Source: an uncultured Acetobacteraceae bacterium
GTDB lineage: Bacteria > Pseudomonadota > Alphaproteobacteria > Acetobacterales > Acetobacteraceae
NCBI GenBank assembly: GCA_964246135.1
Contig: CAXTPV010000002.1
Coordinates: 1 to 47,635 of the forward strand
Length of the DNA stretch: 47,635 nucleotides
Reading direction: 5' to 3'
The translations under genes were made by a program, and so were the position numbers. The notes under the pieces were generated by a model, which saw nothing but the letters and a program-made list of their open reading frames with translations, made no database searches and was not told the origin of the DNA. Each line of letters starts with the position of its first letter. Positions within the stretch are counted from its first letter, which is position 1. Below are positions 4,319-39,433 of this stretch, one piece after another.

Positions 4319-5470
4319 CTAGACCACCAGCCGGGCAAGCTCATCGGCCGCCGCCACGATGTGGTAGAACGTGCTCGCCGGCACCGGATGCTCGCCAAAG
4401 CTGCCATCCGCCTCGATGCGGTCGTGCCACAGCCCCGCCAGCGGCACGTCGAGGTAGCGCAGCAGCGCCTCGCCGCCGGCGCGCGCGACCTCGCCGAACC
4501 GCGCCTCGCCGGTGACCTGCCGCGCCAGCAGCCCCGCCTTGATCCGCTCGGTCTGCGGCCAGGTCCGCCCCACCGCCGCGTGCACCGACATGTCGTCGAG
4601 CAGCGCCTCGTAGGCGACGCCGCGCACGGGGTCGATCCCGTGCGTCTCGGTGAGGTCGATCAGCCGCAGGCTGGCGGCGATGGCGTCGTCGCGCCCGCGC
4701 AGGCTGCCCCAGCGCAGCAGCAGCCAGGCCCACTCGTACTGGTGTCCCGGCTCCACCAGCCGGCCGGGCAGGCCCTCGGCCAGGCTCCAGTCGGCGGCGA
4801 AGTTCTCGTGCAGCGCGCCGGTCGCGGCTGCGATCATGCGGGTGAGCGCAAGCGTCGCGATCTCGTCGGCCAGCGCCCCCCAGGCCGCGTCGCCTCCCAC
4901 CTCGATCCAGGCGAGGCACGCTTCCAGCAGGTGCATGTGCGGGTTGGACAGCAGCGGCAGCGGCCGCGCCTCGCTCGAACGCAAGCCCCCTCCGGCGTGG
5001 CCGAACCGCGCCCTCAGCGCCGCCAGCATGGCCAGGGCATCGTCATGGTGTCGACCGCCGCCGAGCACGATGTGCGCGCGGGCGTAAGCCAGCAGCGCGA
5101 AGCTGTGATCGTACACCACCGCGCGCTCGTCCAGCACCGTGCCGTCGGCCGCCACCAGCGTGCGCAGCAGCCCGTCCGGCCGGACGTAGCGACCCGCCAC
5201 GTAGTCCAGCCCGTGCCGCATCAGCGCGGCCGCCGGGCCGTCCCAGCCGAGCCCCGCGGCCGAGGCGAACGCGACCACCTGTCGCGGCTGCACCCGCGCC
5301 CGCCGCGGCGCCTCGACCGGCGTGCCGTCCAAGGCCAGCGCCTCGTGGAACCCGCCTCGGACCGCGTCCACGCCGCGCTCCGACCAGAGCGGATAGGCGC
5401 ACTCCCGCACCCAGCCCACCAGCCGGTCGCGCAGGCCGATCAGCGACGTGATCTCTCGTTGCATGCGCAA
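4319..5470 (-). CDS. AGE-family epimerase/isomerase (N-acylglucosamine 2-epimerase / mannose-6-phosphate isomerase-like)
   Basis: 383 aa. An (alpha/alpha)6-barrel-type pattern is visible: YPLWSERGVD..GGFHEAL..., VYDHSFALLAYA, NPHMHLLEACLAW, EPGHQYEWAWLL, YHIVAA. Confidence 0.8.
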   Translation of the reverse strand: MRMQREITSLIGLRDRLVGWVRECAYPLWSERGVDAVRGGFHEALALDGTPVEAPRRARVQPRQVVAFASAAGLGWDGPAAALMRHGLDYVAGRYVRPDGLLRTLVAADGTVLDERAVVYDHSFALLAYARAHIVLGGGRHHDDALAMLAALRARFGHAGGGLRSSEARPLPLLSNPHMHLLEACLAWIEVGGDAAWGALADEIATLALTRMIAAATGALHENFAADWSLAEGLPGRLVEPGHQYEWAWLLLRWGSLRGRDDAIAASLRLIDLTETHGIDPVRGVAYEALLDDMSVHAAVGRTWPQTERIKAGLLARQVTGEARFGEVARAGGEALLRYLDVPLAGLWHDRIEADGSFGEHPVPASTFYHIVAAADELARLVV

Positions 5471-16092: not shown

Positions 16093-19125
<3,033 letters not shown>

Positions 19126-19277
19126 CACCATCCGCGCGAAGCAGGTGGCGTGTCAATCGCCACCCACTCGGTGTCAGGCATCCGGCGTAGGCACTTCCTT
19201 CACATTCTGCGTGTACTTCCACAGGCGTCGCCGCGCGGGCGACCTCCGACCACGTGCGCAGTGATGGGATCAACTGC

Positions 19278-21764
19278 ATGTTAGATGATCTCGCCCGCTG
19301 GTTGTTTGACCCCTCCGGTCTGATCCCGCACGGCTCTTGCCTGCTCTGGCATCCGGGCCTGATCTGGACCAACGCGCTGTCTAATCTGACCATCGGCGTC
19401 GCCTACCTCACCATCCCCGTGGCGTTGCTGGTGTTTGCGCGTTTGCGCACGGACCTCGCTGTCAAACCGCTCTTTGGGCTGTTCGCCGCCTTCATCCTGC
19501 TTTGCGGCGCTGGTCACTGGCTCGACCTGCTCACACTTTGGGTGCCCGTCTACGGCGTCGACGGGGTCGTCAAGGCGGCGACGGCGATCGTGTCCCTGAT
19601 CACCGCGGCGGCGATCTGGCCGGCCATCCGGCGTGCGCGATCGCTTCCATCATCAGCCCAGTTCCAGGCCGCCAACGCGGCACTGCGCGAGACCAATCAG
19701 CGCCTCCAGCTCGCCAGCCAGATCGCGGGCGTCGGGCATTGGCGCGTCACGCTGCCGAGCCTGTCCCTCTGGTGGTCCGACGAGGTGTTCCAGATCCACG
19801 GCATCGATCCGGCGTGCGGCGCACCCAGCGTGGACGCTGCCATCGCCGCCTATCATCCGGATGATCGGGCCACGATCGCCCTTCACGTCAAGCGGGCCAT
19901 CGAGGAGGATGTGGACTACGACGTGGGCGCGAGGCTGATCCGGCCTGATGGCGAGCTGCGCCACGTTCAGGCGCGCGGGCTGCAGGAGCGCGGACCCGAT
20001 GGCAGGGTGATCACGTTGTTTGGAACTTTCATCGACCTGACCGAGCAGAAACGCAACGAGGAGGCGCTTGAGCGGCTCTACGCACTGAGCATCCGCGCGC
20101 GCGAGGACGCCGAGGCATCCAGCATCAGCTCACAGCGCCTGGCGCGACATCTCGAAGCCGCTCGCGATCGTGCTGAGCAAGGTAACAAGGCCAAGTCGCG
20201 ATTCCTCGCGAACATGAGCCACGAGCTTCGGACGCCGCTGAACGGCATCATCGGCTACACCCAGCTTTTGCAGCTGGAGGGTGGTCTAAACGCGACCCAG
20301 TCGGCGCGCCTAGAGGCGATGATGGGGGCGGGCAACCATCTTCTCCAAATGATCAACCGTGTTCTCGATCTCTCCGGCATCGAGGCTGGGCGGGTCGAAC
20401 TCGATCAGGTCGATACCGATCTCAGCGCGGTTGCGGAAGCCTGCCTCGATCTCGTTCGACCGACGGCTGACATCAAGCGCCTGGAACTCAGGCTCACGAT
20501 CGAGCGCGATGTTCCGGGTCGGATCAGGACCGATCCCGTGCGGCTCCGACAGATGCTGTTGAACCTGCTGGGCAACGCGGTGAAGTTCACGGCACGCGGA
20601 CATGTCGACCTGCGTCTCGCGAGCCGTGATGATGGTAGGACGCTTCTTCTCGAGGTCGCCGATACCGGCCCCGGTATACCCGTGGAGCGGCGACACCAAC
20701 TATTCCAGGATTTCGAGCGTCTCGAAGCGAGCGCTACCAGCGGCATTGAGGGCGCGGGGCTCGGGCTGGCCATTTCCGCGCGGCTCGCGGCGATGATGGG
20801 CGGCCGGCTTGGATTTAGAGAAAACGACGGTGGTGGCAGCGTATTTTTCCTGGATCTGCCAGAGAAGGATCGAAAGTCCTGGGACGCATCCCCGCCGACC
20901 GCCATCGCCGGTCCGACCGTGCCAGCCGCGCGGGCGCCAGCGAAACCTGTTCGGGCGCTGGTGGTCGATGACGTTGCGATGAACCGCGACGTCGCCCGTG
21001 CCTTCCTTGAAGCGGCGGGTCACGAGGTGCTCTGCGCGAACGATGGGGAAGCGGCGATCGCGGCGGCGGCAGCCATGGATTTTGACGTCGTGCTGATGGA
21101 CATCCGCATGCCGGGCATGGACGGAATAGCGGCGACGAGCCGGATCCGTCGCCTGGACGGTCCCCGCGGACGCGTGCCGATCATCGCCGTGACCGCTCAA
21201 ACCTTCGCCGAGCAGATCGACGAATGTTGCAGGGCTGGCATGGACGGCCATTTGGCCAAGCCGATCAGCCCAGCCATCCTGCTGGAGACCATCGCCTGCG
21301 TCATCGAGGCCCGGGAGTTCGACTGCGGCAATAACCCGCCTGTCATTGCATCAGGACACGGCACTGCCCCCGGCGACTGCGGCTTGGCTGGCCACAACCA
21401 GCCTGAGCGCGGCGTCTTCGATCGAAGCGTCTTCGATCGGACGACGTCGTTCCTCGCTCCTGCCATCGTGACCTCGCACATCCAGGGGATGTCGGATCAG
21501 GTCGGCGCGATCATCCGCCGGTTGCGTGTCAGGGGCCACGATGCAAGCGGGGCTGCCGAAATCGCCGAAGCCGCGCATGTGCTGGCGGGTAGTGCCGGCA
21601 TGTTCGGTTTCAGGCGCCTGGCGGCCGCCGCGCGGCGGCTTGAATGTGCCGCCCGCGCGAGCGCCATCGACGATGGCGATGCCATCGCGTCGGAGCTTCT
21701 CGCCGGCGCGGCGGCCGCTCGGGAGGCGGTGTCCCGCCGTCCGTGGGTGCCAGAACATGCCTGA
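19278..21764 (+). CDS. Hybrid sensor histidine kinase/response regulator: 3-TM N-terminal sensor (ethylene-binding-domain-like), PAS, HisKA, HATPase_c, REC, Hpt
   Basis: H-box [19 protein letters not shown]; N/G boxes [26 protein letters not shown]; [17 protein letters not shown]...[12 protein letters not shown]...HLAKP; Hpt [12 protein letters not shown]. The ORF-track start at 19254 is a GTG; the first ATG is at 19278. Confidence 0.9.
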
Positions 21765-21823: not shown

Positions 21824-22003
21824 ATGACAGGCAAGATGCGCCGCAAAGGCGACCTGCCGACCAAGATCTGCGCTGTGTGCGGGCGTCCGTTCACCTGGCG
21901 CCGCAAGTGGGCGCGGACGTGGAACGAGGTTCGCACATGCTCTGACGCCTGTCGCCGCGATCGGCGGCCGACAGGGATTGCGAAGGGCCTCCCATCGGCC
22001 TGA
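21824..22003 (+). CDS. DUF2256 small zinc-ribbon protein
   Basis: MTGKMRRKGDLPTKICAVCGRPFTWRRKWARTWNEVRTCSDACRR is the characteristic DUF2256 C-x2-C...C-x3-C pattern. The ATG at 21836 is an alternative start. Confidence 0.7.
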   Translation: MTGKMRRKGDLPTKICAVCGRPFTWRRKWARTWNEVRTCSDACRRDRRPTGIAKGLPSA

Positions 22004-25322: not shown

Positions 25323-26817
25323 CCCGAACCTTGATCAGGACCGGCTCCCCCTGCGCGCTCATCCGCTTCTGTTTGAGGTCAACACGCGCCTGCTGCTCGG
25401 ACGCCTGACGCCGGGTCTGGGCCGCGCGGCGACATTGACCGACGTGACCGACAAGGTCCTGGACGGCCTGCTGCCCGCCGGAATCGATTGGGTATGGCTG
25501 CTCGGTGTCTGGCAGACCGGCCAGGCGGCTCCGGCCATCTCGCGCGCCCACCCCGACCTGCGCCATGCCGCCGAGGTGACGCTTGGCAGCTGGACCGACG
25601 AGGACATCGCCGGCAGCTGCTTTGCCATCGTCGGCTATGATGTCGACGAGCGGTTCGGTGGAGCCGATGCGCTTGCGACACTCCGCGCACGGCTCGCCGC
25701 GCGCGGCATCCGGTTGATGCTTGACTTCGTGCCGAACCACACCGCGCCCGACCACCCGTGGGTACGCGAGCGGCCTGACCTCTACGTTTGCGCCGACGAC
25801 GCCACGATCGAGACCGACCCGGCCAACTGGCGCCGGATGAACACGAAAGCGGGTGAACGGGTGATCGCGCTTGGCCGCGATCCGTATTTTCCCGGCTGGA
25901 TCGACACCCTCCAGCTCGACTACGCCCATCCCGAGACTCAGTCCCGGATGCAGGCCTGCCTGACCGCCGTCGCCTCGCTCTGCGACGGCGTCCGCGTCGA
26001 CATGGCGATGCTGGTGCTGCCCGAGGTCTTCCGCCGCACCTGGCACCGCGAGGCGGCGGAGTTCTGGCCGGATGCCATCATCGCGGCGCGCCGGGTCGCG
26101 CCGGGTTTCACGCTGATGGCAGAGGTGTACTGGGGCCTTGACGAGGCGCTGATCGCGCGTGGCTTCGACTACGCCTACGACAAGAGCCTCTATGACGCGC
26201 TGGCCGCGCGTGATGCGGCCGGAGCCCGCGCCTGTCTTGCCGCTCCGGTCGACCGTCAGGCACGGGCCGCCCGTTTCATCGAGAACCACGACGAACAGCG
26301 CGCGGCGTCGGTGTTCCCCTGGCCGGTCGAGCGCGCCGCGGGGGCGATCGCGCTGCTGGCACCGGGCCTCCGCCTACTGCATCAGGGTCAGATGCACGGC
26401 GCGCGCGCACACGTCTCGATGCATCTTGGCCGCGGGCCCGACGAGCCGTCGGAGCCAGACATCGTCGTCCTGCACCAGCGTCTGCTGGCTGTACTGTCGC
26501 ACCGGGCGCTGCATGAGGGCGAGTTCGCGCCGCTCGATCCGGAGCCCGCCTGGGGCGGCAATCCGAGCAATGCCGGTTTCGTGGTGTTCCGCTGGACATG
26601 CGCCGGTGCCGAAACGATCCTGGTCGCGGTCAACTTCGCGCCCAACCGGGGCCAGTGCCGGGTGTTTCTCGAGCCTCCATGGCCGGGCGTGCTGCGCCTG
26701 ATCGATCTGCTTGGAGACGAGCAGTATATCCGCGCCCCGGACGAGATCGCGACCGAGGGTCTCTACCTCGACCTGCCCGGCTGGGGCGCCAACGTGTTCG
26801 AGCTCGGCGGCGGTTGA
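25228..26817 (+). CDS. Alpha-amylase-family (GH13-like) glycoside hydrolase
   Basis: Conserved regions are IRLMLDFVPNHTAPDHPW, GVRVDMAMLV, LMAEVYW and FIENHDEQR. The start is uncertain. The ATG at 25228 overlaps gluQ by 95 nt. In-frame GTGs at 25246 and 25255 and a TTG at 25291 are alternatives. Confidence 0.8.
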   Translation: MARRRCVPCVRPASHQPTSGVLPRSPTCFTLNPNLDQDRLPLRAHPLLFEVNTRLLLGRLTPGLGRAATLTDVTDKVLDGLLPAGIDWVWLLGVWQTGQAAPAISRAHPDLRHAAEVTLGSWTDEDIAGSCFAIVGYDVDERFGGADALATLRARLAARGIRLMLDFVPNHTAPDHPWVRERPDLYVCADDATIETDPANWRRMNTKAGERVIALGRDPYFPGWIDTLQLDYAHPETQSRMQACLTAVASLCDGVRVDMAMLVLPEVFRRTWHREAAEFWPDAIIAARRVAPGFTLMAEVYWGLDEALIARGFDYAYDKSLYDALAARDAAGARACLAAPVDRQARAARFIENHDEQRAASVFPWPVERAAGAIALLAPGLRLLHQGQMHGARAHVSMHLGRGPDEPSEPDIVVLHQRLLAVLSHRALHEGEFAPLDPEPAWGGNPSNAGFVVFRWTCAGAETILVAVNFAPNRGQCRVFLEPPWPGVLRLIDLLGDEQYIRAPDEIATEGLYLDLPGWGANVFELGGG

Positions 26818-26823
26818 GCGGGC

Positions 26824-27501
26824 TCACGCACCCACGTTCTGCCGCAACACTTGGACCTCGGTGAGGCACGCGATGTCGGTCGCGCCCCGGCGATCAAGCC
26901 GACTGACAAACTCGTTGATCTCTTGGTCAGGTTCTCCGCTCCGAAACACGAGGTCTCGTGAGGTCAGGCGCGTCCGGTCGAGCAGGAACACGGGCGCGAG
27001 CGCAATGCCGGGAAGCGATGTGCCAGGGTCTCTCGGCAAGGGCAGGATCACGTCGCCCCACCAGCACGCCGCCTGTGCCGCCGCGCCACCCAGCGCGATC
27101 GCCGCCTGGGTTGCCTGCAACCGCGACAGCAGTTTGGCATACGTCCCGGCCAGCACGCGGTCATTGCTGCCAACGCAGGTCACGTAGCGGCCTTGCGCGA
27201 CCTCCAGGCCCCAGTTCAACAGCGGCACGCGCAGGTCGAAGGGCTCCGGATAGTCCCAGTTGTGCAGCGTCAGGCTGGCGCCCTCGTCCAGCAGCAACAT
27301 GTCCTTGGTCGCATGCCGCACGGCCTGCATGTCGGTGATCGAGAATCGCTGCAGCATCGCATGCAGCCGCAACCCGCCATGGGACTGGCTCCCCGTTGCC
27401 GAGGGGGCCTGGCCAAGCAGCGAGAACAGGCATTGCGCAAAGCAGGGAAGCTCGGCGGTGTCGTAAAGCGTGACGATGACATCAATTCCCTCTGGCGTCA
27501 T
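26824..27501 (-). CDS. Glycosyltransferase-like protein (degenerate GT-A/GT2 fold), last gene of the glycan cluster
   Basis: MTPEGIDVIVTLYDTAELPCFAQCLFSLLGQ... resembles a GT2 N-terminus. The usual DxD position reads VGSNDRV. The ATG shares one base with the stop of the upstream gene (TGATG). It is the C-terminal part of ORF 26824..27735. Confidence 0.6.
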   Translation of the reverse strand: MTPEGIDVIVTLYDTAELPCFAQCLFSLLGQAPSATGSQSHGGLRLHAMLQRFSITDMQAVRHATKDMLLLDEGASLTLHNWDYPEPFDLRVPLLNWGLEVAQGRYVTCVGSNDRVLAGTYAKLLSRLQATQAAIALGGAAAQAACWWGDVILPLPRDPGTSLPGIALAPVFLLDRTRLTSRDLVFRSGEPDQEINEFVSRLDRRGATDIACLTEVQVLRQNVGA

Positions 27502-29282
27502 CAAGCAATGCCCGCCTGCAAGCGCAGGCAGTCGAGAACGTCGGTGCGGCGCCAGGCTTCCCTTACGGCGGGCAGTTCCGGTGCGTCCGGCGCGCCGACC
27601 CCACGCAGCAGCGCGGTGAAGTGGGCCACGGCGGGCGCGTCCCCCCACTTCGAAGCCAGCAGCAGCCCAGCCGCCGGCTTCAGCTCCGGCGCCGGCGCGG
27701 CGCCGACCCCTGCCGAGAACAAAGCACGTGGGCATTGCAGCACGGACAAGCCGAGCGCGCGCGCGCGCCAGGACAGATCGATGTCGGCCAGCCAGGCGTC
27801 GAGGCGCTCATCAAAGCCGCCCGTCGCCTTGAACAGGGTGCGCGGGATCGCGACCCCCGGACCGCCTGCCCACTCGATGCTGAAATCCTCAAGACCGACC
27901 CGCCTCGGTGCCGTGTTCGGAACGGTTTCGACCTGCATCAGCGCCCGACCGCCATGCGCGTCTGACATGCGCAGCAGCGCCGCGCCGCTGCCGGGATGCA
28001 GCAGTCCCGGCGCGTCGAGCAACAGCACCAGGTCCGCGCCAGCATCAAAGCCGGCGCGCAACGCAAGGTTGCGGTCGGAGGTGTCCGACGCGGGACTGCC
28101 GCCGCGAGCTGGCATCCTGATGCGTTCGCCATCTGCGCCGGGCGGCAGGCCCAGCAACGCCATCTCGACACTTCGGGCCAGGGGACCTGATCCCCCCGCC
28201 TCGCCGCGCAACACGATGGCAAGGCGCCTCCCAGGCGCGATCGCGTCGCCCAAAGGCTGTCGCCACAGGACGTGCAGAACACGGCGTGGTCGTGGTGGCG
28301 GCGACGTAATGAGCGGGTTGTCTTCGACCGCGCGAATGACGCCGCGAGATTCGGACAGCCTGACCAGGCGGCGCGACAGGAAGCGATCCAGCGCCTCGCT
28401 GCTCGGCACCGCCGTCACGTGGCCCTGCTCGTGCAATTCGCCACGCGCGGTGAGCTTCATCCAGTCGTAGCCGGCCTGCTCGCAGATGTGGAAATACAGC
28501 CGCTCGATGCAGTGCGCCAGCGTGCCGTCGGTCTGGCCGCGCTCTTCGGGGAAGTCGCGCGCGGCAAGGCCGAGATCGAGCAACGGCCGGAGCGCTGCGC
28601 TGCGCGCCCAGAACATCGAGCCGGAGGGAAAGTCGAGCGGCGCCCGGGGCGGCAGCGCAAAACCCATCCGCCCCGCCAATGCCTCGGCCTCTCGATGGTT
28701 CTGGCCCCAGCGGATCCAGGGGCGAAGCTCGTCGATATGCTGCGGCGCGAGCATTCCAAGCCGCGGCATGCGTGCGAACACCTCGAAAACCCCGCGCACG
28801 GTCTCTGGAGAACCGAGCAAAGTGTCCAACAGGTAGCCGCGCCATCCGACCAGGCGGGAATCGTGGGGCGACTGCTTGGTATGCAGGTGCAGCACGTATT
28901 CGTAACGATCGTGCACGGAGGCGAAACCGACCACCTTGGGCGCGACATCGCGCCCGCGATTTGGCACCACCCGGGTCTCGACCATACCCGGCGCCCAGTT
29001 CGCAAAGCAGGCCAGCACGGCCACCTGCTTTGCCTCGGTGTCCGTGCTGACAAAGAGGTCGGCGCGAAAAGGTATGTTGTCGAGATAGGCGCGAAACTCG
29101 TGCAGCAGCTCGACGTGGAAGGCATGCAGAACGACGGCGACGGAGGGTACCCGTGCCGGTGCCGAATAGCCAAGTGGCAGTTCGAGGCTGAACTCCTGCT
29201 CCAGCGGATAGAGGGACTCCCGCCGCACGATGTGCTCGCCTCGACGCGCTCTGACAATGGGCGTTCCCGACAGGCCAGCCAT
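27501..29282 (-). CDS. Fusion protein: rhamnan-synthesis-F (RgpF)-like domain plus C-terminal GT2-like domain
   Basis: The RgpF-like half reads VAVVLHAFHVELLHEFRAYLDNIPFRADLFVSTDTE...NRGRDVAPKVVGF...YEYVLHLHTKQSPH...FPSGSMFWARSAAL...GTLAHCIERL. The C-terminal half reads LLLDAPGLLHPG...GGFDERLDAWLADIDLSWRA. The ATG at 29282 overlaps the upstream stop by 1 nt. Confidence 0.8.
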   Translation of the reverse strand: MAGLSGTPIVRARRGEHIVRRESLYPLEQEFSLELPLGYSAPARVPSVAVVLHAFHVELLHEFRAYLDNIPFRADLFVSTDTEAKQVAVLACFANWAPGMVETRVVPNRGRDVAPKVVGFASVHDRYEYVLHLHTKQSPHDSRLVGWRGYLLDTLLGSPETVRGVFEVFARMPRLGMLAPQHIDELRPWIRWGQNHREAEALAGRMGFALPPRAPLDFPSGSMFWARSAALRPLLDLGLAARDFPEERGQTDGTLAHCIERLYFHICEQAGYDWMKLTARGELHEQGHVTAVPSSEALDRFLSRRLVRLSESRGVIRAVEDNPLITSPPPRPRRVLHVLWRQPLGDAIAPGRRLAIVLRGEAGGSGPLARSVEMALLGLPPGADGERIRMPARGGSPASDTSDRNLALRAGFDAGADLVLLLDAPGLLHPGSGAALLRMSDAHGGRALMQVETVPNTAPRRVGLEDFSIEWAGGPGVAIPRTLFKATGGFDERLDAWLADIDLSWRARALGLSVLQCPRALFSAGVGAAPAPELKPAAGLLLASKWGDAPAVAHFTALLRGVGAPDAPELPAVREAWRRTDVLDCLRLQAGIA

Positions 29283-30085
29283 CACTGGCGGCTCACTCCG
29301 AGAAAGCTCCGCACCTGCCGCCATCCGACCGTGCGGCGCTGCGGGTAGGCGACCACGACATCGTGGTGATCGTCCCAGGCACGGGGATGGTAGGCCGCCA
29401 TGCGCAACCCGCAGGCCGTCAGGGTCGCGCCAAGCCACGCCTGGTCGATCAGCGAGATGCCGTAATGCTCGTTACTGAGCGCGACGCCGTAGTCGGGACC
29501 GCCACCATAATCGCGATAGCCGAAACCCGTGCGTTCGTAATCATCGATCACGCCTGCCGGGTCGCCGTCGGCGAGGCCGTACCCGATCTCGCGCAGTCGC
29601 GGGATGATGCCGGGGCCATGCGACGATGCCACCAGCACGGAACGTCGGGTCATGTGTCGCGCCATCGCCGCCAGGAACAGCTTCACCTGCCGCGCCGGCA
29701 GGTGGGTGATCAATGAGCCGACCCAGATCAGATCATAGGTTTCCCCCAGCCTCAAGGTGGTGAAATCGCGCACCGACAACGCCGGCCGCACGCCAAGCCG
29801 GGCGGCGCAGAACGCGATGCCATCGGCGTCGAGGTCGCTCGCGGTGATGGTGGCGCCTGGAAACCGTGCCCGCAGCACCCGCGTCACGCGTCCGAACCCG
29901 CTCGGAAGATCAAGAATGCTGCGTGGTAAGGCGCCGTCCAGCGCCTGCTCGATCACGCGCAACGCCGATAGGCCCACCGAGGCATAGTGAAAATGGTCAT
30001 CGTCCCTGAACATCTTGTCGGCATCGTCAACCGATCGGTCCATCGTGGGCAAGGGAAAGCCCACCGGCAGGATAAGTTGATGCAT
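29282..30085 (-). CDS. Class I SAM-dependent methyltransferase
   Basis: ILDLPSGFGRVTRVLRARFPGATITASDLDADGIAFC...YDLIWVGSLITHL matches motifs I-III. The ATG at 30085 has GAGGG upstream. The ORF-track start at 30130 is a TTG that overlaps the upstream gene. Confidence 0.8.
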   Translation of the reverse strand: MHQLILPVGFPLPTMDRSVDDADKMFRDDDHFHYASVGLSALRVIEQALDGALPRSILDLPSGFGRVTRVLRARFPGATITASDLDADGIAFCAARLGVRPALSVRDFTTLRLGETYDLIWVGSLITHLPARQVKLFLAAMARHMTRRSVLVASSHGPGIIPRLREIGYGLADGDPAGVIDDYERTGFGYRDYGGGPDYGVALSNEHYGISLIDQAWLGATLTACGLRMAAYHPRAWDDHHDVVVAYPQRRTVGWRQVRSFLGVSRQ

Positions 30086-30098
30086 GCGTCTGACGCCC

Positions 30099-31604
30099 TC
30101 AGCCGGCGCGCCGTGACGCTGGCACGGCAATCGCTGGTGCCGGCTCGACCGTCATCACAGTCTTCCCAAAGAACAGCATCACCGAGAGGTAGCGCCAGTC
30201 GAGGCCACCTAGCTCGGCATCAGAACGACGCCGATAAATACCAGGGTCGAACTTCCAAGCCCCATTGGCGAGCATCGGGACGGGGGCGTTCCGCCAGACC
30301 ATTGCCGGACCCGGCGAACGTCCCGAAGCCCATAGCGCATCGCGGGTGGCGATGGTGGAGGCAATCAGCGCTCGGTCATGCAGGAGGTCGGGCAACCGCC
30401 AGCAAAACACTATCAGCAACGGCACCGTAAGCAGCAAAGCGCGGGTCCGCTGTGCCATCATGCTCGGCCAGGCCTGGGCGAAACTGTAGACAGCGAGCAC
30501 GCCCAGGCAGGTGCGAAAAGTCTCGTGACGCTCGCAGCAATCGTCGCCGAACTGCCGGTAGGCGAGCACGATCGATCCGTAGCTGGCGAGCAGCAGGGCC
30601 GTACCACGCAGCAGCGCCTCGAGGACGGTCGGCCCCAGGCGCGTCTCCGTCATGCCAGGTCGGAAGCCAAGGAACAGCAGCAGCTTGACCGCGAGACCGG
30701 CGGCAACGTTCCAGCCACCGCCAAGCCTGATTGCTGCCAATTCGCGCAGATCATCCGGTCCTGACACAACGAGACTCGCGCCGAGCCTGCCGATAGTCGG
30801 ACTGCCATGCCGGAGCACATCCACGTTGCTGCCGACCCGATGCAGTGCCGTCACCATCGCGACGAAGGCGACGGAGGCGGCAGCGCTTGCCCACACAAAC
30901 CAGCGTAGGCGCACTTGGCCGCGCGCGATACCGTGCGCAACCAGAAGCAGCCCCGCGTCGATCGCGACCACCATCGCGCCCAGCTCCGCGCACCATGCCG
31001 CAACGACCAGCACACCACCGAGCGCCCAGCTCCGCGATGGATGGTCGCGTTTCATCAGGCAGGCGCTGCCGAGCGCGGTGATCCCGAGCAAGTACGCGGC
31101 GGCGCCAGCTGGCCAGTAGAACATCTCTCCCGGTTTGGCGAGCAGGAGGAACGCCGCAACCAGAGAGGCCGCGATCAGCGCCGGCTCGCGACGAGTGCTC
31201 CTTGCAGCGAAATAGAGGCCGAGCAGGAGAACCGACCAGATGGCGGCAAGAAACGGCAGCGACAGCGGTCGTCCAAGCAGGTTGACAGCGGTGCCATAAC
31301 CAAAAAGCACGAGCTCGGACACCGGACGCGGACTCCAGCCGAGGATCCTGTCCGCGGTCGCATGCCAGCCGGCGACGCGTTGCTCGTGGAATTGCAGGAA
31401 CTCGTCCGGATGCCATTTTCCGAGCGGCAGCAGCGACGCGTAACAGGCGATCATCAGCAACAGCGCCGTGGTCGCACCAGGTATGGCGAGGTATCGGGCG
31501 ACTTGGCGCGTGGGCGTTCGCTTGGCAATGCCGGCTCCGGCCCGGACACTCTCCGCGCTCAATCGGCGCGATCCTCGGGATCGATCGGAGACAGCTTCAT
31601 CCAT
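30099..31604 (-). CDS. Polytopic membrane protein of the glycan cluster (possible GT-C-type transferase or polymerase)
   Basis: About 11-12 hydrophobic segments. The first loop reads LPLGKWHPDEFLQFHEQ (acidic DE motif after TM1). The hydrophilic C-terminal ~90 aa follow. I recognise no family. An alternative start is the TTG at 31562, which overlaps the upstream stop as TTGA. Confidence 0.65.
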   Translation of the reverse strand: MDEAVSDRSRGSRRLSAESVRAGAGIAKRTPTRQVARYLAIPGATTALLLMIACYASLLPLGKWHPDEFLQFHEQRVAGWHATADRILGWSPRPVSELVLFGYGTAVNLLGRPLSLPFLAAIWSVLLLGLYFAARSTRREPALIAASLVAAFLLLAKPGEMFYWPAGAAAYLLGITALGSACLMKRDHPSRSWALGGVLVVAAWCAELGAMVVAIDAGLLLVAHGIARGQVRLRWFVWASAAASVAFVAMVTALHRVGSNVDVLRHGSPTIGRLGASLVVSGPDDLRELAAIRLGGGWNVAAGLAVKLLLFLGFRPGMTETRLGPTVLEALLRGTALLLASYGSIVLAYRQFGDDCCERHETFRTCLGVLAVYSFAQAWPSMMAQRTRALLLTVPLLIVFCWRLPDLLHDRALIASTIATRDALWASGRSPGPAMVWRNAPVPMLANGAWKFDPGIYRRRSDAELGGLDWRYLSVMLFFGKTVMTVEPAPAIAVPASRRAG

Positions 31605-32350
31605 GGATGACGCATGGTCATTTCGACGAACACCGCGTCGTAGGATCGCGCCGTTTCGGTTCGCAGCATGGACGCGCGATGCACCCGGTAGCGGCACAGC
31701 ATCTCCGGAACGAACGCCGCGACGTAGCCCTGCTCGATGAACTTGCACCAGAAATCGTAATCTTCCCAGCCACCCTCGACGTGGCTGTAGCCGCCGACGT
31801 CCCGCCAGGCCCGTCGCGATATCAGTGCCATCGCGTCGATGTAGTTGCCATGGCGCAGCCATCGCGGCTGCCAGACATCGGCGAGGCCGACACCGTGCTT
31901 GGCGCCAAACAACTCATGCTGGGTGTAGGCGGCGGCGGCGGCGCTGGTGGCGATCGCGTGATGCAGCCTGCCGATCGCGCGTGGATAAAGCGCGTTGTCG
32001 GCGTCCAGCACGAACACGTTGGCGCCTTGAGCGTGCAGGAAGCCGGTGTTGCGGGCCTGCGCCAGTCCCTGGTTGCGTCGGTGCCGCAGCAGCTTCACGC
32101 GCGAGAAACGCTCCGAATGCGCCTGCATCCAGTCCCGCGCGACGGCGACTGACGCGTCCTTGGCCGACGCATCGTCAACCACCACGAGTTCGAGCGCGGC
32201 GTGACGCTGCGCCGCGATGGAGTCGAGACATTCAGGAAGGAACTCGGCATAGTTGTACAGGCTGACCGTGACCGTCACGAGGTCGGATGGTGAGGCATCG
32301 TCGCGTGCAGCCTCGAACACGGTCTCAGTCGCGGGCGCAATGTTCGGCAT
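31559..32350 (-). CDS. Glycosyltransferase family 2
   Basis: VTVSLYNYAEFLPECLDSIAAQRHAALELVVVDDASAKD...NQGLAQARNTGF...VFVLDADNALYP is a canonical GT2 (DxD = DAD). There are no TM segments. Confidence 0.85.
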   Translation of the reverse strand: MPNIAPATETVFEAARDDASPSDLVTVTVSLYNYAEFLPECLDSIAAQRHAALELVVVDDASAKDASVAVARDWMQAHSERFSRVKLLRHRRNQGLAQARNTGFLHAQGANVFVLDADNALYPRAIGRLHHAIATSAAAAAYTQHELFGAKHGVGLADVWQPRWLRHGNYIDAMALISRRAWRDVGGYSHVEGGWEDYDFWCKFIEQGYVAAFVPEMLCRYRVHRASMLRTETARSYDAVFVEMTMRHPWMKLSPIDPEDRAD

Positions 32351-32354
32351 TGCC

Positions 32355-35114
32355 TCAGCCGCGCTCCCGGGCGCGATGCCGCGACAGGAACCGCAGCATA
32401 CCAGCGACCGTGTTTCGGGTCTCGAAGGTGGTCGAGATCAAGGCGTTGACGTTGGCGCGCACGCGTTCCGCCTCACGGCCGCCCTCCTCGGTGGTGAGCA
32501 GCCATTCGAGTAGGTCCGGAATGTGTCGTGCGCTCTCCTGCAGGTAGTGTTCGTTGGCAACGAAACTCGGATGCGGCAGGCAGGGGTCTGACACGATCAG
32601 GCTGCCCGAGCACATGCCGATCCGAACCATGCGGTGCCACTCGAAATAGCCGAACTCCTCGCGATGGATGTTCAGCGTGATCTTGCTATGACCCGAAACG
32701 TGCCCGGCGAGCCGGGTCAGCGCGCCGTCCTCGCCTTCACTCCGGATCGGGCCGCGGCCCGGTCGGCGGTTGTAGTTGAAGGTCTCGTAGTCGGCGAAGA
32801 AGGCGGCGTTGCGAGCAAAAAAGCGATCGCGGCGCGCGCTCGACGTGCCAAAGAAGCTGATATCGAGGGGCCTCGCGGCAAACGGCAGGCCGGGATCGAT
32901 GTCACGCTGGGCCGCCGCTGGAAGGACGCCATACAGAGGATGCCGGCGATCCCGCTCGGTGAGCTTGTGCGGCCGCAGACGGGCGCCGGGCAACACGTGC
33001 AGCGCCGCCATGTCAAGGCGCTCGAACAGGTCAGCGGTCTGCGAGCATATATCGAACATGCCCCGCGACATCAGGATGAACGGCAATGCCAGCTGAAACC
33101 AGGTGGTCTGGACCTGCTCGGTGCCGAACATGAAGGCGTCCGACAGCACGTCGTCGCGCACCCAGTCGGAGCCGCGTCCTAGCACGAAGAACTCGTGCGG
33201 TGCCACGAACACGCATACCGGCGGCCGCGTCTCGATCGCGCTGGTCTCGTCCAGCAACTCGACACGAACACCGGCGCTGCGAAGATCGGCTGCCAGGTCC
33301 TCGGCAAGGTCGTCCATGAAGACGTTGCCATGCGTGCTGACATAGATGCCGACATGGCTGACATCTTCGACCAGCGCAGGCAGGTCTTGATCGTCATGCC
33401 GCGAAGGTGGCAGCGCGCGAACGGCATGGTCGAACAGCATGAAGCCGCTCATCAGGCGTGCAAGGTCCTCTGGGTCGACTTTGCCGCGCCCTTCCAGCGC
33501 GCCTGACTGGATGAAGTGCTCGTAGGGGTCGACACCAGCGGCGGCAACGTCTGGGTTGCGGCGCAGGTAGTCCTCGACATCGAACACCTCAAAGCGCCGC
33601 AACCGGGTCACTGCGGCGGCAAGCGTCCACCAGTTCACCTCGCCGACGTAGCGTCCGAAACACTGGATCTGCGGCTTTTCCGGCGGCGGTTCGGCCAGCA
33701 TCTCTTCCGATTGTGACACCTCGGTCTGTTGCGGCGGCTCCACGTAGTCGGGCTCGGGCGGCGGAAGGCCTCTGGTGGACCGTGACAGCAGGCGGCCGAC
33801 GCGTTGAGCACCCACGCCGACCCGCACGAGGCGCGAGCGCCGGGCGGCATCGACGTCGGCGAGCCGGGCGTCGATGTCGATGTCGCGCTGTTGCAGCGCC
33901 GCTTCCCGGGCATCGAGCGCGAGCGCTTGCTGTTCAAGCACGTCACGCGTCGCGGCAAGTTCGGCACGTGCGGCCTCGCGTTCCGCCGCGGCGTCAGCGG
34001 CTCTCGCGTCCCGCCGCAGCATCTCGGCAGCCTGCCAGTCGGCCAGCTTTGTCTCGGCATGGAGTCGTGCGGCGGCTTGGGCCTGGAGCTGTTCGCGTAG
34101 CGGCCGGATGTCTCGCTCGGCCGCCTCGGCACCGAGGCGGCGTTCTCGCTCGGCGACGAAGGCCGCGTTGGCGGCGGCGAGCCAGTCCCCGGTTTCGCCA
34201 AGCTGGCGCGACAGGTCGGCAATGTCCTGCTCAGGCTGATAGGTCTCGGTGCGGGTCCAGGGGAAAACGTTGCGCGCCTCCGGGGTTGACGCAGCAGCGC
34301 GCGCTGTCGCCATGAGCGAGGGCGGCACCACGTCGCGCCCCAGGTTTGCCGTCACCAGCCGCCGAAAATCGGCCGCCTCTTCCGCGGCCGCGTCCTGCCG
34401 AAAGCGTCTCGGCAGACCAAGCAGGTTGGCCAGCAGGTTTTCCGGGTGGATCAGCGACAAGCCGCGTCCATCAGCCCGGCCTGGCTGCGGCAGGGCGTCG
34501 GCGGCAGCGCTGCCGTCGCGCGCGAACACCAAGGTGTTCTGCGCGTACCACCAATCGACATCCGCATTCGCCCAAAGGCTTCCGCGCAAGAAGTCAAAGC
34601 AGGAATAACCTTGGCCACGAAACAGGATGGACCAATATTCCGGCCACTGCTCGTTGACGTGGTGGGTGCCATACTGGAACGGCACCGCGGCGGAGAACAG
34701 CACGGCGTCGCCGAGCGACGCCAACTCCGCAATGAGTGACGGCGCGCGTCCATGCGGCAGATGCTCGGCGACTTCCATGCAGACCACGAGGTCGAAGCTT
34801 GCCCGCGCCCTCGTTCGCAGAATGTCGGGCAGCGCCTGCGTCGCGAGGTCAGAAGCAATGAAGCTGTGGGCGTCAACCAGCAGCGCGTCGCGATCGACGT
34901 AGTCGCCATCAATGCCGATCGCCTCCTCGACCCCGAGATCGAGCCCCGCTCGCATCCAGCTGCCGACGCCACAGCCGACGTCCAGCAGGCGCCGCGGTCG
35001 CAGCAGCGGCACCAGCCTGCCCAGGATGATGCGAGCCGAGATCAGGCTCCGCTCCGCCTGGCCCTCAAAGAAATCCTTGTCGTAGATCGCGGCCGGTGTG
35101 TGTCGGGCCGCCAC
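32355..35114 (-). CDS. Three-part protein: N-terminal class I SAM methyltransferase, ~130-aa Ala/Arg/Glu-rich coiled coil, C-terminal glycosyltransferase-like (CgeB/GT1-like) domain
   Basis: MTase: LLDVGCGVGSWM...FDLVVCMEVAEHLP...HVNEQWPEYW. Coil: REQLQAQAAARLHAETKLADWQAAEMLRRDARAADAAAEREAARAELAATRDVLEQQALALDAREAALQQRDIDIDARL. It also has a YLRRNPDVAAAGVDPYEHFIQSGALEGR motif. The C-terminus reads FGTSSARRDRFF...ITLNIHREEFGYFEWHRMV. The GTG at 35114 lies 2 nt after the upstream stop. The ATG at 35225 would overlap the upstream gene by 110 nt. Confidence 0.75.
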   Translation of the reverse strand: MAARHTPAAIYDKDFFEGQAERSLISARIILGRLVPLLRPRRLLDVGCGVGSWMRAGLDLGVEEAIGIDGDYVDRDALLVDAHSFIASDLATQALPDILRTRARASFDLVVCMEVAEHLPHGRAPSLIAELASLGDAVLFSAAVPFQYGTHHVNEQWPEYWSILFRGQGYSCFDFLRGSLWANADVDWWYAQNTLVFARDGSAAADALPQPGRADGRGLSLIHPENLLANLLGLPRRFRQDAAAEEAADFRRLVTANLGRDVVPPSLMATARAAASTPEARNVFPWTRTETYQPEQDIADLSRQLGETGDWLAAANAAFVAERERRLGAEAAERDIRPLREQLQAQAAARLHAETKLADWQAAEMLRRDARAADAAAEREAARAELAATRDVLEQQALALDAREAALQQRDIDIDARLADVDAARRSRLVRVGVGAQRVGRLLSRSTRGLPPPEPDYVEPPQQTEVSQSEEMLAEPPPEKPQIQCFGRYVGEVNWWTLAAAVTRLRRFEVFDVEDYLRRNPDVAAAGVDPYEHFIQSGALEGRGKVDPEDLARLMSGFMLFDHAVRALPPSRHDDQDLPALVEDVSHVGIYVSTHGNVFMDDLAEDLAADLRSAGVRVELLDETSAIETRPPVCVFVAPHEFFVLGRGSDWVRDDVLSDAFMFGTEQVQTTWFQLALPFILMSRGMFDICSQTADLFERLDMAALHVLPGARLRPHKLTERDRRHPLYGVLPAAAQRDIDPGLPFAARPLDISFFGTSSARRDRFFARNAAFFADYETFNYNRRPGRGPIRSEGEDGALTRLAGHVSGHSKITLNIHREEFGYFEWHRMVRIGMCSGSLIVSDPCLPHPSFVANEHYLQESARHIPDLLEWLLTTEEGGREAERVRANVNALISTTFETRNTVAGMLRFLSRHRARERG

Positions 35115-35115
35115 G

Positions 35116-37896
35116 TCAGGGCTCGCCCAGGAAGGCGCGAATGCGCCGTATGCTCTCGGCCGGGAAGGCGTGCTCCCAGTCGGTCGGCCAGTCCACCTGC
35201 GCGCCGGCAAGTCGGGCGTCGACATCGTCGACGCGCGCCATCGCCTCCACCAGGCCGTCGCAGATCGCGTCGACCGTTGGCGAGACCCCGATCAGGTTGC
35301 TCGAGATCTCGCGCAGCCGTTCGGTGGTCTTGTTGGCGAACACGTTGGTGACCGTCCACATCCCGGCCGACGCCATCTCGATCGGGACTAGGCTCGGATG
35401 CGGCGTCAGCATCAGCGAAAGGCCGACATCGAAACTCGGCATCAGCCGGATGTACTCCTCAAGGCTTGTCTTTGGGACCAGCTCGAGCGGCACGCCCTCG
35501 GCGAGCTCGAGCATGTTGCCGCCGATCGAGCCAATACCGTGAAAAGACCACTCGGCGAGGTTCACGCGTGGGTCGCGTACAACCCGTGCGAGCGCCATCA
35601 TGCCGAGTTCGAACAGGTTGCGGGCGGCGTGCTCCTCGGGTCTGGCGTAGAACAGCAGCCGCCTTTTGCTGCGCATCAACTGGCCGCGAGATGGATGAAA
35701 CTTCTGGATCGCGTTGCTGAACACCGCCGCGTCGGCATCGCCGCCAGCCCGCGCGAAAACACCGATGCCTTGATCGCGAAAGAAGTCGCGCAGCAACTCG
35801 GTCGAAAACAGCGACATCTGGGGCAGCGTGTAGGCCTGCTGGAACAAGGCGCTGATCGAGTTCATCGCCATGAAGTAAGGCTCGTACTCCTGCGCCATGA
35901 ACAGGAAAGGCCCGCCGCGAAGCTGTTGCAGCGTATGATGGGCGATGTGGGCGGCCCAGCAGTTGGTCGCGACGAACTGGTCTTCCGGGTTGACCTCCAC
36001 CGGGACCGTCCGGTCCGCTCGCGCGATCACCTCGACCTCATCGAACAGCGTGGTGATACCAGGATACTTCCCGATCTTGGTTCGCCACTCCCCCATGTTC
36101 CATTCAGTAGGCTCATGGAGAATGATACGCGTATGATAGCCCTCGCGCTTCAGTCGAAGTGCCAGGCTGAACATCCCGATGTAGCCGCCAAAGACATAGT
36201 TGAAATCGATCGTCGCGAGCAGCAGGTTCACCCGCTTGGGGTGCTCATCTGACACGTCAAGCGTAAGCGGCAGGATGTTGCGATGAATCCACTTGGTGGT
36301 GCCATACTCCAATGCTGGAATGCTGCGCCGCGGCGCCTCCATGCTGGCAGGCAGCGGCGTGACGGCGTCAGACGGCGTAAGCGTCAGTTTGCCGGCGGCA
36401 ACGACGGCGTTGAGCAGGCGCGCTCCGGGGTTCTTGACTTGCAACCGGACAAGGTCGCGCTGTTTGCGTCGCAGCGCGTAGTTACGCAGACGCGTTCCGG
36501 CGATCGACCAGAGCAACATTCCTTCGAGGTTGAGCGTCGGCCGGCCGGTACGCACCGCCGCGATCTTTTGGTCAAGTGCGGCTCGAAACGAGGTCTCGAA
36601 TCGTGAGAAGCGCTGCAGGACAACTTTCCGTTCGGCCGGCAGTTGCGGGTTCCGCAGCAGCAACGTGCGCGCCAGCATCACCTTCTGCAACACGAACTTG
36701 TAGTCGTCGAGTGACTGCTTCAGCAGCATCGTGGCCGTCGCCGCCATTCGGCGGCGGTTCGGCGCGGCGCGCAGGACTTGCCGCAGCGCTGACAGCATAC
36801 CGGGCCATTTGTTGTAGTTGTGACCGATCACGCCGCCCGTGTGCTGAACATAGTCGTAGAGAGGGGCATCCACGTATCCGATGCCGCCACGCAGCAACGC
36901 GACCAAGCCAATCCAGTGATCATGGAAGGCAGGACCGACCTGTTTCGGGAACGGCAGCAAATCGGGCAGCAGCGATGCACGGATCATGCTGGCAGCACCG
37001 GTAATGGTGTTGGCAACCATCAGCGTCGACAGGTCCGTGTAGTTGTTACGCCGTCTGGCCCAGAACGTCTCCGACCGGACTCCACCATTCGCGTCGACCA
37101 CGCGCGCGTCGCTGTAGACGAGCTGGATGCGGTCGGTAAAACCGTCGAGCAATGCCCGCAATTTGTCCGGGCGCCAGACGTCATCCTGGTCACAAAGGGC
37201 GATGTAGTCAGCATCGGTCGGCGCGCGCCGCAACGCCTGTTCGAAATTGTCGTAGAAGTGCAGGCGGGCGCGGTTCTGGAAGAACATGAAGCGTCGGTCG
37301 TGCTTGACCATCATGCGCACGCGGTCGTAATGCTCGTTGCTGGTGTCGTCGTCGGAGATGATGCAGACCCAGTTCGCGTGCGTCTGCGCCTGGATCGAGG
37401 CAATCTGTGCCTGGAACAGGTCGGCGGGTGGATCAAACATTGCCATGCAGATCGCGATACGCGGTCCGTCCGCCGGCCACGTCACCGCGGTCGGTTGCAC
37501 GCCGTCCCCGGTCAGCAAGCGGATCGTGCCAAGCAGGCGCTCGATCACCTTGCCACGCGTCAGCGTGGCTCGGAGCCACAAAGCGACATCGCGATCGCGA
37601 CCGGGCGATGCGAACGGCACCAGCCCTTCAAAGCCACTCAGCAGGCTGTTGCCGCTGCTGTCTTGTCCGGGACACTTGTCGACGAACACATCGAGGCGAC
37701 CCCAGGAGTGGTTAGCGATCGACGTCGCGACGCCATCAACGACGATCTCCAGACCGGCGAGCTGGTCGTCGGGCGAATAGCACCACCCGCGCACCGGCAG
37801 CATCGCCCCCTTGCCCACAAGCATCGTGTCGGGCAGCGCCTCATCGAGACCGTGGGCAAACGGCGCCTGGGTGATGCCGGGTGAGAAGTCGTCCAT
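35116..37896 (-). CDS. Bifunctional glycosyltransferase: unknown N-terminal domain, GT2 (rhamnosyltransferase-like) domain, WsaF-like GT-B C-terminal domain
   Basis: GT2: RIAICMAMFDPPADLFQAQIASIQAQTHANWVCIISDDDT...YIALCDQDDVWRPDKL. The C-terminal ~370 aa read VNLLLATIDFNYVFGGYIGMFSLALRLKREGY...FMAQEYEPYF...LLFYARPEEHAARNLFELG...SLVPIEMASAG, which resembles WsaF-type rhamnosyltransferases. This is the first gene of the cluster. Confidence 0.8.
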   Translation of the reverse strand: MDDFSPGITQAPFAHGLDEALPDTMLVGKGAMLPVRGWCYSPDDQLAGLEIVVDGVATSIANHSWGRLDVFVDKCPGQDSSGNSLLSGFEGLVPFASPGRDRDVALWLRATLTRGKVIERLLGTIRLLTGDGVQPTAVTWPADGPRIAICMAMFDPPADLFQAQIASIQAQTHANWVCIISDDDTSNEHYDRVRMMVKHDRRFMFFQNRARLHFYDNFEQALRRAPTDADYIALCDQDDVWRPDKLRALLDGFTDRIQLVYSDARVVDANGGVRSETFWARRRNNYTDLSTLMVANTITGAASMIRASLLPDLLPFPKQVGPAFHDHWIGLVALLRGGIGYVDAPLYDYVQHTGGVIGHNYNKWPGMLSALRQVLRAAPNRRRMAATATMLLKQSLDDYKFVLQKVMLARTLLLRNPQLPAERKVVLQRFSRFETSFRAALDQKIAAVRTGRPTLNLEGMLLWSIAGTRLRNYALRRKQRDLVRLQVKNPGARLLNAVVAAGKLTLTPSDAVTPLPASMEAPRRSIPALEYGTTKWIHRNILPLTLDVSDEHPKRVNLLLATIDFNYVFGGYIGMFSLALRLKREGYHTRIILHEPTEWNMGEWRTKIGKYPGITTLFDEVEVIARADRTVPVEVNPEDQFVATNCWAAHIAHHTLQQLRGGPFLFMAQEYEPYFMAMNSISALFQQAYTLPQMSLFSTELLRDFFRDQGIGVFARAGGDADAAVFSNAIQKFHPSRGQLMRSKRRLLFYARPEEHAARNLFELGMMALARVVRDPRVNLAEWSFHGIGSIGGNMLELAEGVPLELVPKTSLEEYIRLMPSFDVGLSLMLTPHPSLVPIEMASAGMWTVTNVFANKTTERLREISSNLIGVSPTVDAICDGLVEAMARVDDVDARLAGAQVDWPTDWEHAFPAESIRRIRAFLGEP

Positions 37897-38206
37897 CAGT
37901 TCCTGCCGCGCCGATGCGGGGCCTGGATCGGCCCGGCCATACCGATGCCTTGCCCAAAGCGAGTCCGAGCCGGGAGGGATAGCGGCGGTGAGGGATCGTT
38001 CATGCCAATGCCAGAGCTACGACGTGCGCGGCACAGTTGCCATACCGGGCCGCCGGGCGGAAGCGCCCCGGTTGCTTCCTCGTCCCGCCTGGCCATTCCG
38101 ACCCAACGCTCGCGCGCGTCAGAAATCGGCCTTCCAACGCTTCCGGCACCGGCCTATCCATCGTCGGCGAGCCCCCGCCGCGCAAGGACAGCTCCGGACC
38201 ATCAGC

Positions 38207-39409: not shown

Positions 39410-39433
39410 ACCTGCGCCGGGTGCGGCCCTGAC

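Follow-up and report, generated by a model that had tools for sequence, protein, structure and literature searches.

The 47,635-nucleotide stretch of DNA analysed here (hereafter the window; contig CAXTPV010000002.1 of assembly GCA_964246135.1, from an uncultured Acetobacteraceae bacterium) carries on its forward strand, at 19278..21764, a gene for a hybrid sensor histidine kinase. The membrane-embedded N-terminal domain of this kinase belongs, by sequence comparison, to the ethylene-binding domain (EBD) family of the Arabidopsis receptor ETR1, and a single one of the seven residues needed for ethylene binding in ETR1 is replaced in it. The gene, taken from the list of open reading frames (ORFs), encodes 828 amino acids (aa) followed by a stop codon at 21762-21764. 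Two candidate start codons lie in frame, a GTG at 19254 and an ATG at 19278; we preferred the latter, and used it for numbering, because the N-termini of relatives align with it (MLD..WLFDPSG) and the database copy of the kinase, P0068, is likewise 828 aa long.

Pfam resolves the protein into ETR1_N, PAS, HisKA, HATPase, REC and Hpt domains, in that order and each above its gathering threshold. Behind the sensor lie, all on the plus strand, a PAS domain (PAS_3, PF08447, E 3.7e-10; residues 165-250, 19770..20027), the HisKA dimerisation and phospho-acceptor domain (PF00512, E 6e-19; residues 305-371, 20190..20390) with the H-box His315 in an HELRTP motif (20220-20222), the HATPase_c catalytic domain (PF02518, E 8e-26; residues 419-530, 20532..20867) with its N, G1 and G2 boxes, a receiver domain (Response_reg, PF00072, E 2e-25; residues 561-672, 20958..21293) with the phospho-acceptor Asp608 in a VVLMDIRMP motif (21099-21101) and Lys661, and an Hpt domain (PF01627, 29.2 bits against a cut-off of 24.6; residues 739-815, 21492..21722) with His767 in an HVLAGSA motif (21576-21578). 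On inspection of the motifs, His315, the N, G1 and G2 boxes, Asp608, Lys661 and His767 are all intact. An initial annotation of this DNA, made from the letters alone, had described a complete PAS-HisKA-HATPase-REC-Hpt phosphorelay and had remarked that homologues are normally annotated as generic kinases; both statements hold. Database homologues are named 'PAS domain S-box-containing protein', 'ATP-binding protein' or 'sensor histidine kinase', and NCBIfam matched the window kinase with generic kinase families alone, all below their cut-offs, with no ETR1-type-specific model among the matches.

The ETR1_N ethylene-binding-type domain spans residues 28-122 (19359..19643, plus strand) and contains three transmembrane (TM) helices, as delineated by Pfam, hydropathy and AlphaFold2 (AF2). 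Its match to the Pfam model PF25487, titled 'Ethylene receptor 1-like, N-terminal domain', reaches 105.2 bits (gathering score 27, E 2.2e-30) and covers model positions 2-96 of 97. By BLASTP, the sensor aligns with residues 1-134 of Arabidopsis ETR1 (AtETR1) at 31% identity over 111 aa (E 9e-11), using what we take to be the AtETR1 sequence, whose numbering matches the published D25, Y32, I35, P36, I62, C65, H69 and K91. With AzoEtr1 of the alphaproteobacterium Azospirillum brasilense it shares 46% identity over 133 aa with zero gaps (E 3e-41). The AzoEtr1 sequence was taken from plasmid p1 of A. brasilense Sp7 (locus OH82_RS30505), where the recovered ORF is 525 aa long, starts with MFGGVEAF as does the published cloning primer, and has D35, C75, H79 and K98 as published. 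Judged by these scores, the sensor is a true member of the ETR1-type EBD family and its resemblance to ETR1 exceeds chance by far, which upholds what had been proposed from an alignment by eye.

The AF2 model of the sensor, built from 44 homologues (mean predicted local distance difference test score, pLDDT, 88.2; predicted template-modelling score, pTM, 0.73), places helices at residues 26-56, 63-86 and 92-120 and an exit helix at 126-140, and hydropathy likewise reveals three hydrophobic segments. The placing of basic residues, in the helix 1-2 loop and behind helix 3, is consistent with an N-out, C-in topology. A sequence search of PDB with the sensor domain returned nothing at E<=10, and a Foldseek search of PDB with the AF2 model returned chance helical matches only (best E 2.5).

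Functional EBDs are recognised by seven ETR1 residues needed for binding (Wang et al. 2006, as used by the Binder laboratory; PMC11819568), namely D25, Y32, I35, P36, I62, C65 and H69, with K91 as output partner. Aligned to ETR1, the window sensor has N, Y, I, P, I, C, H and K at these eight sites, so that six of the seven binding residues and the Lys91 equivalent are kept and Asp25 is the exception. By this alignment the sensor falls outside the strict seven-of-seven definition and inside a known subclass of Asn variants. Conservation was gauged from a HMMER search of 1.84 billion representative proteins, which recovered 7,799 clusters at E<=1e-3, of which 5,224 also pass E<=1e-10; residue counts given below refer to the 150 nearest representative clusters (50%-identity clusters). 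Helix 1 carries the motif Y43-L-T-I46-P47 (19404..19418, plus strand), equivalent to ETR1 Tyr32, Ile35 and Pro36, with Tyr43 kept in all 150 clusters, Ile46 in 146 and Pro47 in 144. Helix 2 carries I73-L-L-C76-G-A-G79-H80 (19494..19517, plus strand), equivalent to ETR1 Ile62, Cys65, Thr68 (Gly here) and His69; Ile73 is kept in 149/150 clusters, Cys76 in 150/150 and His80 in 149/150. Cys76 (codon TGC, 19503-19505) and His80 (codon CAC, 19515-19517) are the putative Cu(I) ligands, and their Cys-x3-His spacing is that of ETR1 Cys65 and His69. Lys99 (AAG, 19572..19574, plus strand), the counterpart of ETR1 Lys91 and AzoEtr1 Lys98 and the helix 3 partner of Asp25, is Lys in 140 of the 150 clusters. 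The initial annotation had named the Cys/His pair with its two codons and its spacing, the helix 1 motif and the peptide strings it quoted, all of which are present as described; two of the checks it had suggested, a profile match to the EBD and retention of Cys and His across relatives, came out significant and near-complete, respectively.

The remaining site is occupied by Asn36 (AAT, 19383..19385, plus strand), the counterpart of ETR1 Asp25 and AzoEtr1 Asp35 and the sole departure from the seven binding residues. This substitution had been noticed from the start and the codon confirms it, but it had been treated as a footnote, and it is the functionally decisive difference of the window sensor. 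Position 36 is Asp in 135 clusters, Asn in 13 and Gly in two. Exchange of the same residue for Ala (D25A) abolishes binding in ETR1 (PMC11819568, PMC10266040), and D35A AzoEtr1 served as a predicted non-binding control (PMC11819568). In planta, ETR1 D25N rescues receptor function and mediates ethylene responses, which has been interpreted as an at least 100-fold faster off-rate or an at least 100-fold lower affinity (PMC10266040), and plants with ETR1-D25N alone are about 100-fold less sensitive to ethylene (PMC11971883). Natural Asn variants account for 3.67% of 1,221 EBD sequences; they occur 'most commonly in cyanobacteria', with two plants among them, and were read by their describers as kinetic tuning for rapid-response sensing (PMC10266040, PMC11971883). 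By analogy, Asn36 is predicted to lower the affinity markedly, and to speed up ligand release greatly, relative to Asp-type receptors. Since ETR1 D25N works in planta, albeit at this roughly 100-fold lower sensitivity, binding by the window protein is plausible and would probably be weaker and faster-releasing.

We consider it probable, with appreciable room for doubt, that the kinase senses ethylene, or a small alkene like it, in a Cu(I)-dependent manner, with low affinity and fast release, and modulates the His315-Asp608-His767 phosphorelay. From ETR1, SynEtr1 and AzoEtr1 we infer that one Cu(I) per monomer would be held by Cys76 and His80 of helix 2. Ethylene, or a similar small alkene, arriving on the copper would alter helix packing, and the signal would run from Lys99 in helix 3 through the exit helix (residues 126-140) and the PAS domain to the kinase core. 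Autophosphorylation at His315 would be altered, and phosphoryl groups would be relayed from His315 to Asp608 and on to His767, ending at a response regulator whose gene would lie in another part of the genome; the sign of this regulation and the downstream partner are presumptive in the same way. The kinetics expected of Asn36 would suit the following of changing or higher ethylene levels, not of trace levels.

Several points weigh against this reading. Ethylene binding by natural Asn variants, the window protein included, is a prediction; saturable binding by ETR1 D25N went undetected in the standard 14C-ethylene assay in yeast (PMC10266040), and in a bacterial scaffold the effect of Asn could be a full loss of binding. 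The ETR1 Thr68 equivalent is Gly79 in the window sensor, and a model of ETR1 puts Thr68 2.7 Å from the copper (PMC10266040). Sensing could be mainly the task of the PAS domain. Within the 47-kb window we found no partner response regulator, no copper-handling gene (chaperone, ATPase) and no ethylene-related gene (1-aminocyclopropane-1-carboxylate deaminase, ethylene-forming enzyme); an adjacent receiver-domain gene is present at some relatives' loci. Finally, the AAT codon may be a sequencing error or a very recent mutation, with no near-identical database sequence to confirm the base.

Were AAT an error of sequencing or assembly, or a very recent private mutation of GAT, the protein would be an ordinary Asp-type, AzoEtr1-like receptor of high affinity. 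AAT is one transition from GAT and is the minority Asn codon in the kinase gene (3/19), and GAT is common there (31/56 Asp codons). We nevertheless judge such an origin very unlikely, given that the closest relatives of the sensor domain form an all-Asn clade (P0002, P0003, P0004, P0014, P0033 and P0038, mutually 78-94% identical), that the independent genome of Belnapia arida has the same AAT at this site, and that there is no sign of poor sequence quality nearby, the ORF being intact over 828 codons. The B. arida AAT stands against GAT (Asp) in the 85%-identical orthologue of B. moabensis, a difference of one transition.

Further Asn-bearing members sit beside Asp neighbours in the tree. Parsimony on an ETR1-rooted neighbour-joining tree makes Asp ancestral and requires at least 12 state changes at the Asp25 column, which include Ser, His and gap states besides Asn; on this tree, Asn at the Asp25 position arose repeatedly. 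Its clade-wide retention, its repeated origin and the single GAT/AAT transition between the Belnapia orthologues argue that Asn is a tolerated functional state. This bears on the idea that ethylene binding has been lost or is vestigial, in which case the three-helix domain would do no more than anchor the protein in the membrane and help it dimerise, and sensing would fall to the cytoplasmic PAS domain. Such a loss would be in line with Asp25 being among the seven required residues, with the abolished binding of D25A and the undetectable binding of D25N in yeast, with the presence of a PAS domain in the kinase, and with the wide variety of PAS arrays and kinase types to which relatives fuse the same sensor domain. 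A decaying site would, however, be expected to lose its other binding residues, its Cu ligands and Lys99, all of which are intact, and all 13 Asn-bearing members of the 150 nearest clusters keep both Cys and His. With Asn held across the whole clade at 78-94% identity, and with ETR1 D25N still a functional ethylene receptor in planta, we regard a vestigial sensor as quite improbable.

The copper ligands are invariant and the second shell around them varies, with Asp, Asn or Gly at position 36 and Thr, Gly or Ser at position 79. The Lys91 equivalent is lost in 6/13 Asn variants versus 4/135 Asp variants (Fisher p 2e-5), and Gly stands at the ETR1 Thr68 position in 6/13 versus 21/135 (p 0.015), both comparisons being without phylogenetic correction; the Lys91 loss agrees with the published Asp25-Lys91 bridge. 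This enrichment of Lys91 loss and of Gly79 in Asn variants suggests that the site was remodelled in a concerted way in some members of the family. It would be compatible with an ETR1 fold that holds Cu(I) and answers to something other than ethylene, Asn36 and Gly79 marking a pocket retuned to another ligand: another small alkene or an alkyne, carbon monoxide, an isocyanide, copper availability, or the redox state of copper or of a thiol. Plant ethylene receptors respond to other alkenes too, and weakly to carbon monoxide. A Cu(I) olfactory receptor for organosulfur ligands is, moreover, mechanistically similar (PMC10266040). The window sensor, on the other hand, combines Asn36 and Gly79 with a retained Lys99, and by keeping Lys99 and the six other residues it resembles ETR1 D25N, which signals ethylene in planta. 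All family members tested to date, comprising plant receptors, SynEtr1 and AzoEtr1, bind ethylene (PMC11819568), and there is no member with a demonstrated alternative ligand. We consequently hold a signal other than ethylene to be unlikely, if worth keeping in mind.

Read as a low-affinity ethylene sensor, the window kinase is a further example of a known receptor type and of a known Asn subclass, not a new mechanism. The initial annotation had confined functional EBDs to plants and cyanobacteria and had called proteobacterial homologues barely studied, and both views are outdated. AzoEtr1[1-130] binds 14C-ethylene saturably, and AzoEtr1 controls biofilm formation and root colonisation (PLoS Genet 2025; PMC11819568); putative ethylene receptors with diverse output domains have been catalogued in many proteobacteria (PMC7700396, PMC11819568), and the family has a dedicated Pfam model. 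AzoEtr1 and the window sensor are alike in the PHGxC..W.P motif ahead of TM helix 1, in the Cys/His ligands, in Tyr, Ile and Pro of helix 1, in Ile of helix 2 and in Lys of helix 3, and in both proteins the sensor leads into a PAS domain and then a histidine kinase. They differ in that AzoEtr1 has Asp35 where the window protein has Asn36, and Thr-Thr before the His where the window sensor has Ala-Gly. AzoEtr1 is, in addition, a simple kinase of 525 aa and of a different kinase subtype, whereas the window protein is an 828-aa HisKA-HATPase-REC-Hpt hybrid, and the azoEtr1 gene adjoins a response-regulator gene, whereas the window kinase has no regulator nearby.

With Arabidopsis ETR1, the window sensor shares the three-helix Cu(I)-type domain and the residues Tyr32, Ile35, Pro36, Ile62, Cys65, His69 and Lys91, and the window protein is naturally in the state of the engineered ETR1 D25N (PNAS 2023, PMC10266040; BMC Plant Biol 2025, PMC11971883). 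ETR1 likewise has kinase and receiver domains, but it carries a GAF domain instead of PAS, is without Hpt, and signals mainly via CTR1 and not by phosphorelay (PMC11971883); it also has Thr68 where the window sensor has Gly, and an N-terminal Cys4/Cys6 pair as against the bacterial HGxC motif. SynEtr1 (Synechocystis slr1212), compared by description, is a bacterial EBD receptor with a histidine kinase and phosphotransfer to a response regulator, and is bifunctional for light and ethylene (PMC11819568). Published natural Asn variants are mostly cyanobacterial, whereas those described here are alphaproteobacterial, in the window, in Belnapia arida and among the 13/150 nearest clusters.

Just ahead of TM helix 1, in a stretch predicted to be periplasmic and outside the Pfam ETR1_N model, lies the motif H18-G19-x-C21-x-x-W24-x-P26 (19329..19355, plus strand). 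Its His is kept in 146 of the 150 nearest clusters, its Gly in 143, its Cys in 148, its Trp in 144 and its Pro in 144, which is the conservation level of the copper ligands, and AzoEtr1 carries it as PHGVCLFWRP. The motif may be the counterpart of the ETR1 Cys4/Cys6 dimer disulfide, or a copper-loading site; no discussion of it was found in the ethylene-receptor literature that we examined. Tentatively, and as a possibility that we would not favour on present evidence, the kinase may represent a natural proteobacterial receptor of low affinity and fast release, with Asn36, a retained Lys99 and Gly at the ETR1 Thr68 position. In the wider family, the exchange of Asp for Asn together with loss of the Lys91 partner would then be a recurrent route to retuning the Cu(I) site (its kinetics, possibly its response to another gas), and HGxC could be an undescribed functional element of bacterial receptors.

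The present gain is one of annotation, from a generic hybrid kinase to an ETR1-type receptor kinase of the Asn variant. If functional, the kinase would add a further alphaproteobacterial lineage, apparently close to Acetobacteraceae, to those that perceive ethylene; within Acetobacteraceae, an ethylene response without an identified receptor has been reported in Komagataeibacter (PMC4686702). It would also provide a natural Asn-type receptor on a bacterial phosphorelay scaffold, handy for testing the Asp/Asn switch of affinity and release, which is relevant to the design of ethylene biosensors as well (PMC11971883).

No close orthologue of the kinase was found among 5.8 billion clusters, the best full-length relatives being 47-57% identical, and look-ups of the exact sequences of the kinase (from either start codon) and of LpxB gave no further contig. 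Many full-length relatives have the layout ETR1_N-(PAS)n-HisKA-HATPase-REC-Hpt, and others carry the same sensor on different kinase types; the nearest genomic relatives of the sensor are from Belnapia, Rhodovastum and uncultured Acetobacteraceae. The closest plasmid-borne homologue, at 58% identity, is an ORF from about position 4995 of locus L013 (Rhodovastum atsumiense plasmid RHOApb), which by eye apparently has Ser at the Asp25 position. Its RefSeq coding sequence begins at 5292 and cuts off most of the ethylene-binding-type domain (match 5001-5420), so that the start site is probably mis-annotated, hiding the sensor. P0071, among the closest full-length relatives at 56% identity (6001-8004 of L010, a contig of ENA ERZ25070695), is flanked by IS66, DDE and rve transposase genes and has a separate REC-Hpt gene nearby, and from this setting such sensor-kinase genes appear capable of being mobilised. 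Many database proteins of about 140-250 aa consist of ETR1_N only, and their interpretation as stand-alone sensors was rejected, as they are probably frameshift artefacts. Two were inspected, both ETR1_N-only genes from long-read metagenome assemblies (L014:1380-2963 and L015:5001-5432): 34 nt beyond one of them a PAS-HWE kinase has been called as a gene of its own, and the other stands among split genes.

The window itself is a chromosomal segment of 68% GC with housekeeping genes, and its genes include those for TrcR, HSP20, MscL, a LysR regulator and SecD/SecF. The thiC gene is transcribed divergently from the kinase gene, and a DUF2256 gene lies downstream of the kinase gene. Also present are LpxB and an HNH endonuclease, a cluster for polysaccharide synthesis, two aminotransferases, a GNAT acetyltransferase and a P450. 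The best match of ThiC is 87% identical, and one match is labelled Acetobacteraceae. None of seven genome loci with a related sensor (0/7) shares ThiC, DUF2256, LpxB or SecDF as neighbours, and the kinase is absent from the nearest ThiC contigs. Horizontal acquisition of the kinase gene was considered and set aside, its GC content at third codon positions (GC3) of 0.77 against 0.84-0.92 in its neighbours being too slight a difference to argue transfer.

In the divergent intergenic region common to the kinase gene and thiC, the thiC 5' leader contains a thiamine pyrophosphate (TPP) riboswitch (18961-19126, minus strand). It scores 37.5 bits against an Rfam gathering score of 54.3, with E 1e-5 in a local search; a 66-nt insertion in the P3 stem lowers the score, and for this reason a whole-window scan at gathering thresholds gave no RNA family. 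The DUF2256 gene (about 21824-22003, plus strand; Pfam E 5e-21) encodes a CxxC...C-type protein of about 59 aa and starts 60 nt past the kinase stop codon on the same strand. The two genes could be co-transcribed; DUF2256 was not found beside the sensor kinase in any related locus examined. The polysaccharide-biosynthesis cluster, at about 26800-37900, comprises RgpF-like, GT2 and WsaF-like glycosyltransferases and methyltransferases, and has a GC content of 0.61-0.66, against about 0.68-0.73 elsewhere in the window; it is a candidate for a variable surface-glycan island. At 37811-42841 (plus strand), two tandem genes of the class I/II aminotransferase family and, after them, a double GNAT acetyltransferase and a cytochrome P450 form a small biosynthetic cluster.

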